A stretch of 28,823 bases of DNA from Candidatus Micrarchaeota archaeon (GTDB taxonomy: Archaea; B1Sed10-29; JAJRYS01), in contig JAZDJV010000088.1 in the NCBI GenBank assembly GCA_043803585.1, positions 1 through 28,823 of the forward strand. The letters run 5' to 3'. Position 1 is the stretch's first letter. The number at the start of each line of letters is the position of its first letter. The translations under genes were made by a program, and so were the position numbers. This document shows positions 8,906 to 28,823 of this stretch, piece after piece. The notes under the pieces were generated by a model. The model worked only from the letters and a program-made list of their open reading frames with translations, did not search any database and had not been told where the DNA came from.

Positions 8906-9454
8906 ATGATAATACATAACTCCATTGAAGGCGTGCTGGCCACCCCCTCAAAAGCGAAGGTGGCGCGCTTTCTGCTCAGAAGCAAAAAAGAGGAGCAGAC
9001 GAGCTCCGAGATAGCAAGGGCTGTCAGCCTGTCAGTTCCTCAGTCAATAAAGTCGCTCAGAGCGCTTGAAGAAGACGGCGTCGTCACTTACAGGACCATT
9101 GGGAAAGCAATGGTGTGGAAGCTTAATTCTGATAGTTTTATGCTGAAAAAATTGAAAAGCGTCTTTCAGGATCCGATTGACATTATCAAGAAAAAGCTGA
9201 AGGCGCTGAAAAAACACTGTTACAAGGTGATAATATTCGGCAGTGTCGCGAGGAAAGAGGAGACAAAGAAAAGCGATCTGGACCTCTGCCTTGTTGCTGA
9301 CAATCAGAAGTACAAAAAAGAGCTTGATGAGCTTAGGTATGAAATTTTGAAGGAGTTCGGAATCGTCGTGTCTGTTGTAACCTTCAAAAAGAGCGAGTTT
9401 GAAAGCAAGAAAAGCAAACTGCTTGATGAAATAAGGGAGGGGACTGAGCTGTGA
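8906..9454 (+). CDS. wHTH-fused minimal nucleotidyltransferase (MNT antitoxin)
   Basis: N-terminal HTH (TSSEIARAVSLSVPQSIKSLRALEEDGVV) and MNT motif IIFGSVARKEETKKSDLDL. Its stop overlaps the next gene's start (GTGA). Confidence 0.9.
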   Translation: MIIHNSIEGVLATPSKAKVARFLLRSKKEEQTSSEIARAVSLSVPQSIKSLRALEEDGVVTYRTIGKAMVWKLNSDSFMLKKLKSVFQDPIDIIKKKLKALKKHCYKVIIFGSVARKEETKKSDLDLCLVADNQKYKKELDELRYEILKEFGIVVSVVTFKKSEFESKKSKLLDEIREGTEL

Positions 9455-9864
9455 AAGCGCGCCCAGTTGAAAAATTCAAGTACGCAAACTTTGAGAAAAA
9501 GGCTGACGAGTTTTACGCTTCAATGCAGGAAGCGCTGCAAAAAAGAAGATGGAACGCAGTCGGATTAACCGGAATCCACTGCGCGATAAGCTGTTGCGAC
9601 GCCTTAACCGCTTACTTTTTGGGCAAGCGCAGCGCCGGCGAAAGGCACGAAGAAGTTGTTGAACTGCTTAAAGAAATAAAATCAATCGATGAAAGCGAAA
9701 AAAAGGCGAGGATAACCCAGATTTTGAACATCTTAAAGCCGAAAACAAAAGTTTCTTATGACAGCGAAATTTTCAGGGAAAATGAGGCGCTTGATCTGGC
9801 GAAAAGAGTTGAAAGATTTTATGAATGGGTTAAATCAATCCTGCAAAAGGAGAGAGGACTGTGA
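9451..9864 (+). CDS. HEPN domain protein (partner of the MNT)
   Basis: 137-aa helical protein: KADEFY..M..AL....WNAV...GIH.AIS..DAL...LG.RS.GE.H..V..LL and K..K..V.Y. Directly follows the MNT gene. Confidence 0.85.
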   Translation: MKARPVEKFKYANFEKKADEFYASMQEALQKRRWNAVGLTGIHCAISCCDALTAYFLGKRSAGERHEEVVELLKEIKSIDESEKKARITQILNILKPKTKVSYDSEIFRENEALDLAKRVERFYEWVKSILQKERGL

Positions 9865-22836: not shown

Positions 22837-24582
22837 ATGAAATTTACCAGCACGGGCGCTTCCGCGCATTATTCAGTTCTGGCTTCTGCGGTGGTCTTCA
22901 TTTTCGCAGCGGCAGTCATGACGCAGGTTGGCGCAGCTTACAGCGTGACTGTATTCAACAGCTCGGCAACAGCAGTCAACTTTACGTTCACAACAGCTTC
23001 AAGCAACGCCACGCTTGGCGTTGTCCTGCCGAAGAACGCGACGATTTCGTCGTCGACGGTGATGGTGACGGGATATAATTCGTCTTGGAACAGCTCGGCG
23101 AATGCGACGATGACGGGTGGATCAATAGAGCGTCTTGGTTGGCCAGCGGCTTCTGCGGGAGACGTAAATAATGATGGATATAGCGATGTGATTGTCGGCG
23201 CTTATTATTACTCAAGCAATAAAGGGAAAGCGTATGTATACTACGGATCTTCTACAGGGATAAATAATGCCTCTGCTAATGTGACTATGATCGGAGAAGC
23301 AGCAAACGATTATTTTGGAGTTTCTACAAAATCTCTAGGAGATGTAGATAATGACGGATATAGTGATGTAATTGTTGGTGCTTATGGGTTTTCAAGTTAC
23401 AAAGGAAAAACTTATTTTTATTCCACAAAACCTGTCTCAGTCGCCAACTCCACTCTGCTTGTCAGCAACACTGAGAGTTGGGGCGCAACAAGCTATTCTG
23501 GGAGCACAGCGCTCACCAATCTCACTTCTTCATTCCACGGAAACCTGTCTGCCTGCACCCAGGACGACAGCGCGAACTGCACAGTGGCCCTGAATGTCAC
23601 AGGCCAGACAGGCACAGTCCAGTTGAGCGCCCTGAACATCACTTACGGCACTCAACCAGCTGGCATGAACACGACTTATTATCATTACAACACGACTGAA
23701 CGCGCTAATTTGTCTGCGAGCGTGCAGACAAATGATACCACGCTGTACATCTGGAACGCCACAAGCTCTCGCGCGATTATGATGGTGAACACCACGTTCG
23801 CCTCCCAGCCGAACTACACTGGCTGGGTTGGGCAGGAAGGCGTGAATTCAACTGACAGCAGGGCTTATGTGATCACAAGCACCCTACTTGCTGATGCGCA
23901 GAACACTTCGCAGAAGGTTCTGCTTCTGAGAGCGAGCAACACTTCATTCACAAGCGTGTGCAAGATTGATTCAGCTGTTTCTGCGGCCACGCTTATGGCG
24001 ATTGTGAACCAAACTCAGTGCACTACAGCAGGAGGCACTGCCTCAACTGCTGACACTGTTGAGATTGCAGGCGCGACTTACTTTATGATAACTGGAATGA
24101 CCAGCTCAGGCGCAGTGCAGATAAACAACACCAATGGAAACGCTCCGATTATTACGGGCGTGAGCGCATCGCCTACCACAGGAAACGTGGAAACAAATTT
24201 CGCTTTTTCCGCCACGGTCGTGGATCCTGACAATGACGCTATGAGTTATGTCAGAGTGTATCTGAACGGAAATCAGTGGACATTGGGCGAGACAGACCCG
24301 ACAGATACAACTACAAGCGACGGAAAATCTTATTCAGCTGTCACACAGCTGCAGACAGGAAGCTATTCATATTACTTCAAGGCGTCTGACGGAACGAACA
24401 CGGCGACGACCACGACTTACACAGGGCTGCTCGTGACCGGCAGGCCGACGCAGATTGTCGTGAACACCTCTGAGTTCGACGTTACTGAACTTGTGATCAT
24501 GTTCGCGCTTGCAGTAGTTATTTTGATAGTCTTTAAAAACAAAAGAATCCGCACTAAAAAGACGTCCCAGAAAAAGAAGTAA
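22837..24582 (+). CDS. Secreted, C-terminally anchored surface glycoprotein with two FG-GAP repeats and an Ig-like C-terminal module
   Basis: Signal peptide, many N-x-S/T sequons, two GDV(N/D)NDGYSDVIVGAY repeats, APIIT...DPDND...Y.YYF.ASDG, and TM helix LVIMFALAVVILIVF followed by a basic tail. Confidence 0.85.
   Translation: MKFTSTGASAHYSVLASAVVFIFAAAVMTQVGAAYSVTVFNSSATAVNFTFTTASSNATLGVVLPKNATISSSTVMVTGYNSSWNSSANATMTGGSIERLGWPAASAGDVNNDGYSDVIVGAYYYSSNKGKAYVYYGSSTGINNASANVTMIGEAANDYFGVSTKSLGDVDNDGYSDVIVGAYGFSSYKGKTYFYSTKPVSVANSTLLVSNTESWGATSYSGSTALTNLTSSFHGNLSACTQDDSANCTVALNVTGQTGTVQLSALNITYGTQPAGMNTTYYHYNTTERANLSASVQTNDTTLYIWNATSSRAIMMVNTTFASQPNYTGWVGQEGVNSTDSRAYVITSTLLADAQNTSQKVLLLRASNTSFTSVCKIDSAVSAATLMAIVNQTQCTTAGGTASTADTVEIAGATYFMITGMTSSGAVQINNTNGNAPIITGVSASPTTGNVETNFAFSATVVDPDNDAMSYVRVYLNGNQWTLGETDPTDTTTSDGKSYSAVTQLQTGSYSYYFKASDGTNTATTTTYTGLLVTGRPTQIVVNTSEFDVTELVIMFALAVVILIVFKNKRIRTKKTSQKKK
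23158..23421 (+). repeat. Two FG-GAP / integrin-alpha-type Ca-binding repeats, 180-nt period
   Basis: GDVNNDGYSDVIVGAY..SSNKGKAYVY at 23158 and GDVDNDGYSDVIVGAY..SSYKGKTYFY at 23338. Confidence 0.9.
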
Positions 24583-24594
24583 GGGTGAATTATT

Positions 24595-25350
24595 TTGATT
24601 GACACCCACGCGCACATTGACGACAAACAGTTCAATCCCGACCGCGCGGAGGTTCTTGAAAGGGCGAAGCAGAGCGAAGTCAGAGCTGTGATAAATCCTG
24701 CGTCATCTTTTTCTTCAAATGAGCGGGCGCTTGAGCTTTCAAAACAGTACAAAGGTTATTTGTTTGCAATGGCAGGCCTGTTTCCCACGGCTTACCTGAA
24801 GGAGCCCGAGAAACTTCCGCTGGTCGAGCAGTTCATAGAAAAGCATAAAAAAGAAATCATTGCGATAGGCGAAGTCGGACTTGACTATTTCTGGTCAAAA
24901 ACCGGGCCTGAAAGAGAGAAACAGAAGGCGTGTTTTGCGCGCTTTATTGAAATCGCCAACGAAACAAATTTTCCGATTGTGATTCACGCGCGCGACTCGA
25001 TTGACGACTGCCTGCAGATGCTCGCCAAAGCTGGGCACACTGTCATAATGCACTGCTTCACCGGAAACAGGGAGCAGGCGAAGCAGTGCGTTGACCGCGG
25101 ATACTGGGTGACAATGGACACAAACTGCTGCTTTTCAAGCAAAAACAAAAGCTTAATTAAGCATGTTTCCTTAGATTACCTGCTGGCGGAAACCGATTCC
25201 CCCTACAACCATCCGGAGCGGAAAGGGAGGAACGAGCCGGCTAACATCAGGCAGCTTTATGAGCTGATTGCCAAAGAGCAGGGCGTCGAGTTCAGCGAGA
25301 TTGAAAGCCGGCTCGACAAAAATGCGGCAAAAGCGTTTAAATTGTGGTGA
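24595..25350 (+). CDS. tatD: TatD-family deoxyribonuclease
   Basis: IDTHAH, IGEVGLDY, VIHAR, MHCF and AETDSP. TTG start after SD GGTGA. Confidence 0.95.
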   Translation: MIDTHAHIDDKQFNPDRAEVLERAKQSEVRAVINPASSFSSNERALELSKQYKGYLFAMAGLFPTAYLKEPEKLPLVEQFIEKHKKEIIAIGEVGLDYFWSKTGPEREKQKACFARFIEIANETNFPIVIHARDSIDDCLQMLAKAGHTVIMHCFTGNREQAKQCVDRGYWVTMDTNCCFSSKNKSLIKHVSLDYLLAETDSPYNHPERKGRNEPANIRQLYELIAKEQGVEFSEIESRLDKNAAKAFKLW

Positions 25351-25847
25351 TATTTGTGTCAGTTTTGGGAAGGCTCAAAAAAGAGAAAAAATCAAAGAAA
25401 CGGATGGCTTTTTTTGTCGACGGCCCGAACATGCTCAGAAGGGAGTTTGACATCGACCTTGCGGTCGTCAAGAAGCAGCTTGAGCAGTTCGGAAACCTGT
25501 CAATCGCCAAGATATTTCTCAACCAGTTCGCGCCCGACAAACTTATTGAGGCCGTAATAAACCAGGGCTTCCAGCCCGTGATGGTCACATCAGACGACGT
25601 TGACGCTCCGATGGCCGCAGAGGCAATGGAAGCTGTTTTCAACAACAACATAGACATCATTGCCCTGATGACAAGGGATTCTGATTTTCAGACCGTGCTT
25701 ACAAAAGCGAAGAAATACGGCAAAGAGACGATTGTGGTCGGTTCAGAGCCGTTTGCAGTCGCCCTGAAGAACACGGCAGACCACGTCATAATAATAAAGA
25801 CGAAAAGATCTTCAAAAGAAAAAGGATTCACAGCGCCGGCAGTGTGA
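25344..25847 (+). CDS. NYN-domain protein (LabA/DUF88, archaeal TIGR00288-like)
   Basis: FVDGPNMLR, LNQFA.DKLIEAV.NQGF, DVDA.MA and TRDSDF..V...AK..GKET. Start uncertain (GTG 25344 or 25347, overlapping the tatD stop). Confidence 0.9.
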   Translation: MVIFVSVLGRLKKEKKSKKRMAFFVDGPNMLRREFDIDLAVVKKQLEQFGNLSIAKIFLNQFAPDKLIEAVINQGFQPVMVTSDDVDAPMAAEAMEAVFNNNIDIIALMTRDSDFQTVLTKAKKYGKETIVVGSEPFAVALKNTADHVIIIKTKRSSKEKGFTAPAV

Positions 25848-25856
25848 GGAATTAAA

Positions 25857-26468
25857 ATGGACATTGCGCTCGGAAAACCAGTTGAAACAGGCAGCTACAC
25901 AGACCAGCTGGACGCCAGAAGGTTCATTGAAAAGCTGAAAAGCCAGAATTTCACGGGCTATGTTTCTGTCGTCATAAACGAAAGCGCGGGCATAGAAGAG
26001 GGCACAATTATTTTTTACAACGGCGGTGCAGCCTGCGCTGACTACGAGTACTACAAGTACAACGAAGTTTTCAGGGGCAACACCGGGCTTGAAAGGTGCC
26101 TCAACGCCTTTCTTGCAAGAAACGGCGTTGTCGACACTTTTTCATTAACTTCTTACCAGCTGCAGCTCATCACCACTTTGAACGAGGAGTCTGCTGTTTC
26201 CCTTGGAGACGGCGACATTTCAGCGATGATTCCAGACTCTTTTTCAGAGAGATACTCGGCCCAAATGGTCTCAAAATACGGCACAGGCGAGGCCACAAAG
26301 CAGGAAGTGTACAAAAAACTGGGCATAAGCAGGAAGACGGCGAAGAACAGCACAAGGGACCAGCTGATTGAAAGGGTGAGCGAAGGGCAAAAACAAACCA
26401 TTAAAAAACCTGAAAGCGTAAATGAAGACAGAACAGACAGGCTGGCGAAACTTCTTAAGAAAGGGTGA
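25857..26468 (+). CDS. DUF2226-like (PATAN/DUF4388-related) protein
   Basis: FTGYVSVVI...GIEEGTIIFYNG, G..DTFSL...QLQL...LNE match my recollection of DUF2226. Called by eye. Confidence 0.65.
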   Translation: MDIALGKPVETGSYTDQLDARRFIEKLKSQNFTGYVSVVINESAGIEEGTIIFYNGGAACADYEYYKYNEVFRGNTGLERCLNAFLARNGVVDTFSLTSYQLQLITTLNEESAVSLGDGDISAMIPDSFSERYSAQMVSKYGTGEATKQEVYKKLGISRKTAKNSTRDQLIERVSEGQKQTIKKPESVNEDRTDRLAKLLKKG

Positions 26469-26500
26469 CTTCAACTGACTTTGTTTTTTGGCGATGTTTT

Positions 26501-26947
26501 ATGGGTCTGAAGAAACTGGTTTACAGGGCAATCAATAAAAAAACTCCGGAGGAAAAGCTGAAGCGCAGGATTGAAATAATCCAGGAGCTTATAGCCCAGC
26601 ACGCGCTGCCCGAGCCGAAGGAGCCCAAGCAGTACGCGAAGAACCTCGCGACGAATTTTTATCTTGACTCAATCGTCGTTTCGAAAAAAGACGGCACAAT
26701 CGTGATGTCGACTGACGGAAACTCGTTCGACAAGGCTGTAAAGGCCACTTCATTCTGCGAATACGTGAAGACGAACTATCCGGGCACGAAGTTCATGACA
26801 ATGAAGGGCAACGGCAAGTATGATGTTTTATATAATGACGGCGATTTAGTATTCATGTTCAGATCTCCGGGCGACATCTCGATCAGCGAGACGAAAAGAA
26901 TCGCCGAGCAGGTCAGGACAGGCATGGAGAAATACGCGATAAAATGA
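26501..26947 (+). CDS. Hypothetical protein with a possible roadblock/LC7 (profilin-like) fold
   Basis: LDSIVVSKKDGTIVMS resembles the roadblock beta1-DG-beta2 motif, followed by a helix, short strands and a terminal helix. Start set at ATG 26501. Confidence 0.55.
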   Translation: MGLKKLVYRAINKKTPEEKLKRRIEIIQELIAQHALPEPKEPKQYAKNLATNFYLDSIVVSKKDGTIVMSTDGNSFDKAVKATSFCEYVKTNYPGTKFMTMKGNGKYDVLYNDGDLVFMFRSPGDISISETKRIAEQVRTGMEKYAIK

Positions 26948-26962
26948 TTAGAAGGTTGAATT

Positions 26963-27736
26963 ATGGGAAGAATAATTTCAGTTTCAAGCGGAAAGGGGGG
27001 GGTGGGAAAGACCACTGTCGCGGCGAATCTGGCATACGCGCTTTCAAAATACGGGAAAAAAGTCGTTGCAATTGACGCTGATCTGGACATGGCCAATCTC
27101 GAGCTGGCTTTCGGAATGGAGGGCAGGCCGATAACCCTGCAGGACGTGCTCAACGGCGAAGCCCACCTGGAGGACGCCACCTACGAAGTTGACAATAATG
27201 TTTACATGGTGCCTGCGGGCATATCCCCTTCGCAGTTCAAAAGGGTTGATCCCGAGAAATTCGCGGACATAGTCAGGCAGGCTGCCGAGAACAGCGACTT
27301 CGTGATTCTTGACTGCCCCGCCGGCATAGGAAAGGACACGACAGCGTGCTTCTCAGCGTCAAAAGAAGTCATAATCGTTATGACTCCGGAGCCGATGAGC
27401 GCCACAGACGCGTACAAAACTCTGCTTGTCGCCGAGAAAATGGGCAATGACGTGGTAGGCGTCGTGCTCAACATGGTCAGAGGCGTCAAAAACGAATTGA
27501 ATTCGAAGGAAGTCACCTCGCTTCTCAATCTTACGATAATCGGAACAATAACAGAGGACAGCGAAGTCAAGCAGAGCGTGCTGAGCGGAAAGCTGCTGAT
27601 GAAAAATAATCCGCAGAACGCGTCGGCAATAGAAATAAAAAGAGTGGCGGCAAGGCTTGCAGGGGCGAAGTTCGTTGAAGAGCAGCCCAAAAAGAGTTTC
27701 CTCTCCGGTTTATTTGGCATTTTCAAGAGGAGGTAG
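26963..27736 (+). CDS. minD: MinD-family ATPase (archaeal type)
   Basis: Deviant Walker A SGKGGVGKTT, IDADLDMANL, LDCPAG, TPEP and a C-terminal amphipathic membrane-targeting helix KKSFLSGLFGIFKRR. Confidence 0.95.
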   Translation: MGRIISVSSGKGGVGKTTVAANLAYALSKYGKKVVAIDADLDMANLELAFGMEGRPITLQDVLNGEAHLEDATYEVDNNVYMVPAGISPSQFKRVDPEKFADIVRQAAENSDFVILDCPAGIGKDTTACFSASKEVIIVMTPEPMSATDAYKTLLVAEKMGNDVVGVVLNMVRGVKNELNSKEVTSLLNLTIIGTITEDSEVKQSVLSGKLLMKNNPQNASAIEIKRVAARLAGAKFVEEQPKKSFLSGLFGIFKRR

Positions 27737-27742
27737 TTGTAA

Positions 27743-27967
27743 ATGACAGAAATAACAAGGCCGTTTGACCTGCTGAACAGCATAATGAACGAGCAGGTGC
27801 TTGTCAGGCTGAAGGGCACAAGACAGCTCAGGGGCAAGCTGAGGGCGTTTGACCAGCACATGAACTTGGTTCTTGACGAGGCTGAGGAGCTTGAGGACGA
27901 CCAGCTGAAGTCAAAGCTGGGCAAGGTAATCGTGCGCGGGGACAACATTCTGTATGTTTCCCCTTAA
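27743..27967 (+). CDS. Sm-like archaeal protein (SmAP1/Lsm)
   Basis: RPFDLL, V.V.LKG....G.L..FDQHMNLVLD.AEE and IVRGDNI.YVSP. SD GGAGGT overlaps the minD stop. Confidence 0.96.
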   Translation: MTEITRPFDLLNSIMNEQVLVRLKGTRQLRGKLRAFDQHMNLVLDEAEELEDDQLKSKLGKVIVRGDNILYVSP

Positions 27968-28008: not shown

Positions 28009-28823
28009 ATGGGAATGAAAGGAATTGCCCGATTATTTTCAAAAAAAGGGAGGCTTGAGAAGAAAGCTGAAAAGCTTCCCACGCAGTATGTACGGCTTTT
28101 TGAAGAGGCTAAAAAAACCGGCGACATAGCTAAAATGAAAGAAGTTTTAACAGCTGTGAAATCTGGAAAACTTAAGATAAAGTCCATACCAATCCCAAAC
28201 CTAATTTTTAGCGCTACAACAAATGCTGGATTAGTTAAGATTGCGGGCTTGAAAAGAACGATCCCAAATGTGCACAAAAGGACGATGAGAGGGGGGGGAA
28301 TTTTTTTTTGGGGCCCAGAAAGCATAGACAAAAAATACCTTGTTAAACTGAAAGGCGAAGAGGAGCATAAAAAATTCTGGCATAGAGGGGATACAACCAG
28401 CGCATTAAAATCGACTGCAAAGCATCTTGACGAGAGGATGTACCCTTTAAATCCATTAAATAAATCAGCACAGTATGTAACTGCAAAAAGGATGCGTGAT
28501 TTTAAATTTGGTTCCTTTGGAATACTCAGTAATCCGGGTGTAATCGCAGTTGACTTGGAAAAGATGTATAAGAGAGGCTACAGGATTGCGATTGACCCTG
28601 AAATCGGTCGTGGTTCATACATAGTAACAGATAAAGAAGGCTATTCTGTAGAAAATTTGAACCCAAAACATTTTGAATTTGTGGCTGATGTCGACGCTGA
28701 AAAGATTAAAGAGATAGAAACAGCCGCTAAAAGAGAGGTTGAAGAAGAAGGGAATCTTCCGCCTGAAAAAAAGCCGCAAAAAAGGTATAGGACACCTGAC
28801 GGCCGAATTCCCGTTATTCATGC
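28009..28823 (+). CDS. Basic hypothetical protein, possibly ADP-ribosyltransferase/Tpt1-like fold (3' truncated by the window edge)
   Basis: Absent from the track because no stop is reached. The frame is open from ATG 28009 to the end: MGMKGIARLFSKK...FWHRGDTTSA...QYVT...PGVIAVDLEKMYKRGYRI...GSYIVT...LNPKHFEFV. TATA-like TTTAAAAG at 27980. Confidence 0.7.
   Translation, partial: MGMKGIARLFSKKGRLEKKAEKLPTQYVRLFEEAKKTGDIAKMKEVLTAVKSGKLKIKSIPIPNLIFSATTNAGLVKIAGLKRTIPNVHKRTMRGGGIFFWGPESIDKKYLVKLKGEEEHKKFWHRGDTTSALKSTAKHLDERMYPLNPLNKSAQYVTAKRMRDFKFGSFGILSNPGVIAVDLEKMYKRGYRIAIDPEIGRGSYIVTDKEGYSVENLNPKHFEFVADVDAEKIKEIETAAKREVEEEGNLPPEKKPQKRYRTPDGRIPVIH

Follow-up and report, generated by a model that had tools for sequence, protein, structure and literature searches.

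The 28,823-nucleotide stretch of DNA analysed here (the window; contig JAZDJV010000088.1 of assembly GCA_043803585.1, from a Candidatus Micrarchaeota archaeon) carries at positions 25857-27736 a conserved cluster of three genes, encoding a DUF2226 protein, a small protein that we call X, and an archaeal MinD. We give an even chance to the reading that this trio is a MinD-type positioning system working with partners other than MinC and MinE and helping to place or time the Z ring. Genes, folds, synteny and a number of absences are reported below as findings of this analysis, and whatever goes further than genes, folds and synteny is put forward conditionally. In the list of open reading frames (ORFs) the three genes are co-oriented on the + strand and tightly packed, with no intergenic gap of more than 32 nucleotides: X starts with the ATG at 26501, 32 nucleotides after DUF2226 (an alternative GTG start at 26465 would give a 4-nucleotide overlap), and 15 nucleotides separate X from minD. 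An earlier note, made from this DNA sequence alone, had described three packed co-oriented genes ending in a MinD with a membrane-targeting helix, a description with which the ORFs, the Pfam and NCBIfam matches and the alignments agree. Its statement that MinC, MinE and archaellum genes are lacking from the window held among the scanned ORFs of at least 100 amino acids, none of which matched MinC, MinE, archaellum or pilus families, several of them having no Pfam match of any kind.

The arrangement of the trio is not due to chance, because the cluster recurs in 29 of the 31 species genomes (0.3-1.3 Mb, small-genome DPANN-type) of the GTDB class to which the source genome belongs. DUF2226 adjoins minD in 28 of them, the cluster of the 29th is split over two contig ends, and the remaining two genomes, which are 61-62% complete, are without DUF2226 and without MinD. 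The usual order in the class is (TatD)-NYN-DUF2226-X-MinD-Sm, with NYN upstream of DUF2226 and Sm after minD in nearly all loci. X is strongly diverged in two lineages of the class (L019 and L034) and missing in two others (L021 and L023), where DUF2226 directly abuts minD. Metagenomic relatives of X, with 44-50% identity and far more distant, all lie between DUF2226 and minD. Conservation of the neighbourhood with minD had been named in the earlier note as a check, and the linkage proved to be conserved, both in the class and in Methanobacteria. Outside the class, a canonical Roadblock gene adjoins DUF2226 in five of eight sampled loci, which matches the PATAN-MglB neighbourhood ascribed to Makarova et al. 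2006 in PMC4316618. A distant homologue of X at positions 2433-2912 of L036 (a contig from Logan SRR17220974), in NYN-DUF2226-X-MinD context, has a recorded protein that requires TGA to be translated as Trp; possible causes are a sequencing error, recoding and the use of another table in gene calling.

By its sequence, the MinD of the window is an archaeal MinD with intact catalytic motifs and a predicted membrane-targeting helix. It matches the NCBIfam model minD_arch (TIGR01969) with 267.4 bits at a cut-off of 201.75, far above the ParA models, and is the only MinD of this genome (single match). The deviant Walker A motif from S9 to T17, including K11 and K16, and the residues D38, D40 and D117 are invariant in 24 orthologues and align with E. 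coli-type MinD. The last 15 residues align with the membrane-targeting sequence of enterobacterial and Bacillus-type MinD (hydrophobic moment of the core 0.44), and the K-K-x-hydrophobic pattern of this C-terminal helix is kept across the orthologues.

The modelled fold of X is the Roadblock/MglB fold. The AlphaFold2 model, built on a 23-sequence alignment, has a predicted local distance difference test score (pLDDT) of 85 and consists of an N-terminal helix pair followed by the succession alpha-beta-beta-alpha-beta-beta-beta-alpha. Searched against PDB with Foldseek, it gave 98 matches with E<1e-3, and the top 50 listed are almost all of Roadblock type; the best is Myxococcus MglB (6hjm, E 2.2e-5), and LAMTOR2/p14-MP1, Asgard Roadblocks and dynein LC7 are also among the top matches, with target-normalised template modelling (TM) scores of 0.5-0.65. 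Topology and structure search thus bear out the Roadblock-like fold that the earlier note had assigned to the middle protein by eye. The sequence evidence is weak and points the same way. X has no Pfam match, and Robl_LC7 (PF03259) is not matched at E<=1 by X nor anywhere in the genome; one distant member of the X family reaches Robl_LC7 with E 0.038. In BLASTP, X is matched at 1e-5 by a 188-amino-acid Roadblock protein (Robl_LC7 above cut-off) whose gene adjoins a DUF2226 gene in an unrelated archaeon (G053), and hhalign of the X family with five archaeal Roadblock neighbours of DUF2226 gave 91 columns with E 0.0046 and a probability of 7.6%. Profile searches of the PDB sequences with X and with DUF2226 returned nothing significant. 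The X family is narrow, with 68 cluster representatives out of 1.84 billion in a profile search. A conserved (G/N)-K-K-T-x-E-E motif stands just before the N-terminal helix, the C-terminal half of which (residues 23-33) is the predicted MinD contact in the complex model described below.

The DUF2226 protein is, on the strength of profile comparisons, PATAN-related. It matches PF09987 with E 7e-8 and 32.7 bits (gathering threshold 22) over model positions 7-177 of 252, as do all 29 aligned relatives. Its AlphaFold2 model (pLDDT 84 overall, >90 for residues 1-140) comprises an N-terminal alpha/beta domain (residues 1-145), a KK(Y/L)G(L/I) helix motif at about residues 148-158 and a basic amphipathic C-terminal tail. 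Aligned with 16 PATAN domains of cyanobacteria and delta-proteobacteria by hhalign, the N-terminal domain reached a probability of 85.7% and P 5.5e-6 over 93 columns. The window protein itself does not match the PatA_N/DUF4388 model PF14332 of Pfam; cross-matches to DUF4388/PatA_N occur in 4 of the 29 relatives, the best with E 2.6e-5 and 24.7 bits at a cut-off of 25. In a structure search of the ESM Atlas, DUF2226 reached TM scores of 0.70-0.72 to PatA_N clusters, one of which, from Myxococcota, bears both Pfam labels; the closest clusters in the Atlas bear the labels Micrarchaeota (Microcaldota) and Iainarchaeota. The PATAN-like call, also made by eye, is upheld by the hhalign result, the cross-matches and the Atlas scores. 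Foldseek found no match for the DUF2226 model in PDB, which holds no PATAN structure, and the claim therefore rests on profiles and not on solved structures. A word-indexed homologue search recovered only DUF2226 itself. The C-terminal tail is found in about half of the orthologues (alignment A2) and is possibly a membrane-binding or partner-binding peptide. In the same alignment, an (L/V)-(L/M)-K-K-Y-G-(L/I) helix motif after the PATAN-like domain is common to all DUF2226 proteins; it is present in MinD-linked, SepF-linked and Roadblock-linked forms alike and resembles a peptide-binding or docking motif shared by the whole family.

The first set of complex models comprised a MinD dimer, two ATP, DUF2226 and X, with our own alignments and with X as the tested partner. 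X reached an ipSAE of 0.70-0.71 in three runs versus 0.00 in all three controls. In the calibration of these scores, 58 of 80 solved complexes and 2 of 110 mismatched pairs reach the mark. In the best run, residues 23-33 (N-terminal helix), 52-55, 102-107 and 122-133 of X contact residues 97-98, 123-131, 144-161 and 179-187 of one MinD copy and residues 53-54, 63-64, 87-99 and 209 of the other, so that the interface of X spans both copies. Residues 144-161 of the window MinD correspond, in an alignment with Escherichia MinD, to residues 147-164 of the E. coli protein, which we take to be the helix-7/switch-II surface at the dimer interface, the binding site of MinC and MinE.

The same surface was examined for co-variation with the presence of X, using positions at least 70% conserved in 20 X-bearing MinDs and comparing them with four X-less MinDs (two of the class, two of Methanobacteria). 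Of the 21 interface positions, 44% carry the consensus residue in the X-less MinDs, versus 75% of the 98 others (permutation p 5e-5; none of 246 circular shifts as low), and the effect is seen separately in both X-less lineages. R94 and D96 of MinD, in the loop Q-F-R-R-V-D-P-E-K, are invariant in the presence of X and changed in its absence, and two of the four invariant columns of X (G124, E130) fall in the predicted interface. The predicted X-binding surface of MinD thus appears to be conserved only in MinDs that have X. We infer, with moderate support, that X docks at the canonical partner site of the ATP-bound MinD dimer.

A second class, identified as Methanobacteria since the MinD of a named Methanobacterium falls within it in a tree, keeps the order DUF1611-SepF-DUF2226-MinD in about 24 loci of four families. 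Its DUF2226 is a longer form of 270-450 amino acids, X is missing, and the flanks of DUF2226-minD differ entirely (DUF1611, SepF, PfkB), with no NYN and no Sm. The sepF gene directly upstream of DUF2226 is the only SepF match of the genome in four of five Methanobacteria genomes checked; the fifth (G079) has no SepF Pfam match, and there phmmer finds a SepF-like ORF upstream of DUF2226. SepF is the membrane anchor of archaeal FtsZ, and its genomic context was called variable in the same study, which leaves the SepF-DUF2226-MinD operon unmentioned (PMC8178401). This operon points to FtsZ/SepF division rather than pili. Of the functions proposed in the earlier note, placement of the division site is accordingly favoured, and nothing specific was found for pili or for a host-attachment site. 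In a quick MinD tree, the DUF2226-linked MinDs of both classes fall together (94% in the Shimodaira-Hasegawa-like approximate likelihood ratio test), a grouping with several long branches that we do not use as support; three unlinked Woesearchaeota-type MinDs and a Natrialbaceae MinD fall apart from it, and the automatic 'linked' label is wrong for L035.

Several further observations concern the methanobacterial loci. The suggestion that the C-terminal domain of their long DUF2226 is a fused Roadblock or X domain was rejected (hhalign E 0.26 and 0.068). A single exception to the SepF-DUF2226-MinD operon is L039 (Methanobacterium sp. UBA44, DACV01000007.1, positions 925-2950), where an orthologous MinD is preceded by 2 kb without an ORF of at least 90 amino acids; this upstream 2 kb contains no Ns and gave no tblastn trace of SepF or DUF2226. 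In the Methanobacteriaceae loci L127, L131-L133, L135, L136, L138 and L140 a second, more divergent MinD paralogue lies directly downstream of the DUF2226-linked minD, resulting in a tandem minD pair.

The source genome (686 kb, 106 contigs, 80% complete) has one MinD, one FtsZ match and one SepF, and FtsZ is present in 30 of the 31 genomes of the class, usually in two copies. MinC (PF03775) and MinE (PF03776) were found in none of the 31, the same searches being positive in six and four bacterial controls, respectively. OapB (PF09846; DipB/ArcoB) was likewise found in none of the 31, the source genome included, and OapC (PF09845; DipC/ArcoC) was not found in the source genome, the sole genome searched for it. 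With FtsZ present and MinC, MinE and OapB not found, the class therefore seems to divide with FtsZ but without a known positioning system. No small Ras-like GTPase was found in the 31 genomes, the Ras-family matches being weak and lying within ORFs of 390-870 amino acids, sizes that are typical of translation GTPases; the Roadblock protein of the class therefore appears to have no GTPase to serve. In family f9, the genomes G018, G023-G026 and G028 have three FtsZ/tubulin-family matches in place of the usual two.

On the basis of these results a mechanism can be proposed. MinD would bind ATP, dimerise and attach to the membrane via its C-terminal amphipathic helix, a step suggested by its intact motifs and by established MinD biochemistry. 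X would bind the ATP-bound dimer across its interface, at the helix-7/switch-II surface, through the N-terminal helix and an edge of the Roadblock domain, and might there stimulate ATP hydrolysis and membrane release in a MinE-like or MglB-like manner, or compete with cargo; this role is proposed because of the complex model and the co-variation. DUF2226 would be the more ancient and more constant companion of MinD, an adaptor or effector coupling it to the FtsZ/SepF division machinery in a MinC-like role, as suggested by the only sepF gene of Methanobacteria being transcriptionally joined to DUF2226-minD. In the DPANN-type class, which has FtsZ and SepF, the module would help to place or time the Z ring. 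That DUF2226 couples MinD to SepF/FtsZ, and that the module acts in division-site placement, we infer from context only. A wider version, which we offer tentatively, is that DUF2226-MinD is an ancient ATPase-based divisome positioner of FtsZ-using archaea, parallel to the Dip/Arco system, in which the PATAN-like protein takes the part of MinC by binding SepF or FtsZ and the Roadblock protein of the DPANN-type archaea was recruited as a MinE-like or MglB-like activator.

A number of points weigh against a MinD system with these two partners acting in division. The X model lies outside the calibration of the complex scores on account of its own alignments and ATP ligand. None of the contacts of run 2 recurs in run 1 or run 3, which may reflect swapped MinD copies. 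When MinD was replaced and DUF2226 kept, the score of X fell to 0.00, and the model therefore sees no contact between X and DUF2226; as tested partner of MinD/X, DUF2226 scored 0.01, a value that neither supports binding nor speaks against it. The claim of the earlier note that X and DUF2226 are the missing regulators of MinD was therefore strengthened for the binding of X, by complex model and co-variation, but not for that of DUF2226. The co-variation test does not separate surface from core, and its four X-less sequences come from two lineages. X is missing from the two class lineages and from Methanobacteria and is therefore not essential to the DUF2226-MinD pair, DUF2226-Roadblock pairs occur in other archaea without minD nearby, and the reading does not account for the constant NYN and Sm neighbours. 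Moreover, the four Haloferax MinD paralogues act in motility and not in division, and the known archaeal divisome positioner is the unrelated Dip/Arco, which is also present in Methanobacteria (PMC13228585; 10.64898/2026.07.23.738820).

The main rival is that the module positions or regulates a surface machine, such as type IV pili, an adhesion site or a host-attachment site, and not the divisome, which we consider rather unlikely. By analogy with FlhG/FleN in flagella and with Haloferax MinD2/MinD4 in archaella and chemosensory arrays, MinD might serve such a machine, with the PATAN domain contacting a pilus motor. A paper whose text mentions PilB1 reports, to go by its title, an interaction of cyanobacterial PATAN response regulators with the motor of type IV pili (10.1101/2021.06.11.447907). 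In archaea, FleN/MinD ATPases (arCOG00589) and Roadblock proteins (arCOG02603) have been reported in the vicinity of type IV pilus loci (PMC4858521). The MinDs of Haloferax serve motility and not division (PMC13228585; PMC11588486), and the gene of a large FG-GAP surface protein lies 1.3 kb upstream of the module. However, there are no pilus or archaellum genes among the scanned window ORFs or in about 60 related loci inspected, sepF alone among non-housekeeping genes is joined to DUF2226-minD repeatedly, and the window MinD is the sole MinD of its genome.

The persistent flanks allow a different explanation, in which the cluster is mere synteny of housekeeping genes, X and DUF2226 serving the RNA-related flanking proteins (NYN nuclease, Sm) or something else, and MinD acting alone or with unlinked partners. 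NYN and Sm indeed flank the trio throughout the class, DUF2226 has no predicted contact to MinD or X, and the DUF2226-Roadblock pairs of other archaea manage without minD. Yet DUF2226 and minD are adjacent again in Methanobacteria amid different flanks lacking NYN and Sm, the complex model, whose controls are clean, predicts that X binds MinD, at a surface conserved only where X is present, and homologues of X are found solely between DUF2226 and minD; we regard this explanation as improbable. Less credible still is that MinD is a ParA-like ATPase for the segregation of chromosomes or cargo, with X and DUF2226 as adaptors to DNA or to cytoplasmic cargo. The protein belongs to the ParA/MinD superfamily and is the only MinD of a small genome, in which ParA-type partition ATPases were not searched for; however, it scores as minD_arch far above ParA and carries a MinD-type membrane-targeting helix, X and DUF2226 contain no DNA-binding domain recognisable with Pfam, and no ParB or centromere-like repeat was noticed, no search for either having been made.

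Table 1. Features of the DUF2226-X-MinD locus and its immediate neighbours (positions in the window)
Feature	Position	Strand	Basis or remarks
NYN-domain protein, TIGR00288 family	25344..25847	+	Pfam NYN E 1e-22; TIGR00288 201 bits
DUF2226 protein, 203 aa, PATAN-related (profile-based)	25857..26468	+	PF09987 E 7e-8
C-terminal tail of DUF2226, residues 190-203, D-R-L-x-K-L-L-K-K	26424..26465	+	basic, amphipathic; hydrophobic moment 0.62
Protein X, 148 aa, predicted divergent Roadblock/LC7/MglB fold with N-terminal helix extension	26501..26947	+	AlphaFold2, Foldseek
N-terminal helix of X, residues 16-33	26546..26599	+	DSSP on the model, alignment A1, interface list
Archaeal MinD, 257 aa	26963..27736	+	TIGR01969 267 bits
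Deviant Walker A of MinD, SGKGGVGKT, residues 9-17, signature lysine K11 and K16	26987..27013	+	conservation
Predicted C-terminal amphipathic membrane-targeting helix of MinD, residues 243-257	27689..27733	+	alignment of membrane-targeting sequences
Sm-like (LSM) protein	27743..27967	+	Pfam LSM E 1.7e-25; start 6 nt after minD

Around the trio (Table 1), the NYN gene ends 9 nucleotides before DUF2226 and is itself preceded by a TatD gene. The remaining genes of the window are housekeeping genes, among others those of AlaRS, topoisomerase VI A and B, RIO kinase, KsgA and aIF5A. Three further loci of the window, all on the + strand, deserve mention. The gene at 22837-24582 encodes a predicted surface protein of 581 amino acids, a candidate glycosylated adhesin, with FG-GAP repeats, very many N-x-S/T sequons and a C-terminal hydrophobic anchor that a lysine-rich tail follows. 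An open frame without a Pfam family (28009-28823) comes directly after the Sm gene and runs off the window, with a length of at least 271 codons. At 8906-9864, amid housekeeping genes, a nucleotidyltransferase (NTP_transf_2) gene adjoins a HEPN gene, as is the arrangement in a minimal MNT-HEPN toxin-antitoxin-like module.

The module resembles bacterial MinCDE in several respects: its MinD, predicted to bind the membrane, has a deviant Walker A and a C-terminal amphipathic helix, the minD gene forms a compact operon with those of two small dedicated proteins, the partner is predicted to bind at the helix-7 surface of the dimer interface, as MinC and MinE do, and a link to the FtsZ machinery exists at the genome level, here via SepF in Methanobacteria. 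In contrast to MinCDE, the partners have a Roadblock fold and a PATAN-like domain and are not homologous to MinC or MinE, and the Roadblock partner is dispensable in some lineages. With MglA/MglB and PATAN of Myxococcus and other bacteria (Makarova et al. 2006, as cited in PMC4316618) it shares Roadblock and PATAN-type genes beside a P-loop NTPase switch, and the closest structural match of X is MglB. However, the NTPase of the module is a SIMIBI-class MinD ATPase and not a Ras-like GTPase, none having been found in the class, and X has an extra N-terminal helix that forms part of the predicted interface.

Among archaeal systems, the only known divisome positioner is the Dip/Arco oscillator described in 2026 preprints, composed of the GTPase DipA/ArcoA, the SepF-like DipB/ArcoB and the FtsZ1 antagonist DipC/ArcoC. 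Like the module, it is a three-protein archaeal system with a membrane-binding NTPase core, restricted to FtsZ-using archaea and with a SepF-type link, but there is no homology between them, the module using MinD, Roadblock and PATAN folds. Dip/Arco and SepF-DUF2226-MinD appear to coexist in Methanobacteria. MinD2 and MinD4 of Haloferax volcanii are likewise archaeal MinD paralogues with membrane-targeting sequences and without MinC or MinE, but their roles lie in archaella, chemosensory arrays and cell shape. No validated partner of theirs is known, and HVO_0596 is without phenotype (PMC11588486). DUF2226 was not detected in the Haloferax control genome, and none lies near a Natrialbaceae MinD locus. 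In the papers searched we found no mention of DUF2226 and no description of a MinD-Roadblock-PATAN module.

To our knowledge, neither a validated partner nor a tie to cell division has been established for any archaeal MinD. X and DUF2226 are concrete, testable candidates for partners of an archaeal MinD, and a specific interface can be predicted, in which R94/D96 and helix 7 of MinD face the N-terminal helix and the G124-E130-K132 edge of X. The SepF link lies in cultivable and genetically tractable Methanobacteria and is therefore accessible at the bench. If X regulates MinD, the role of Roadblock proteins as NTPase regulators would extend from Ras-like GTPases to SIMIBI ATPases, and X would be the first Roadblock protein that regulates an ATPase instead of a GTPase.

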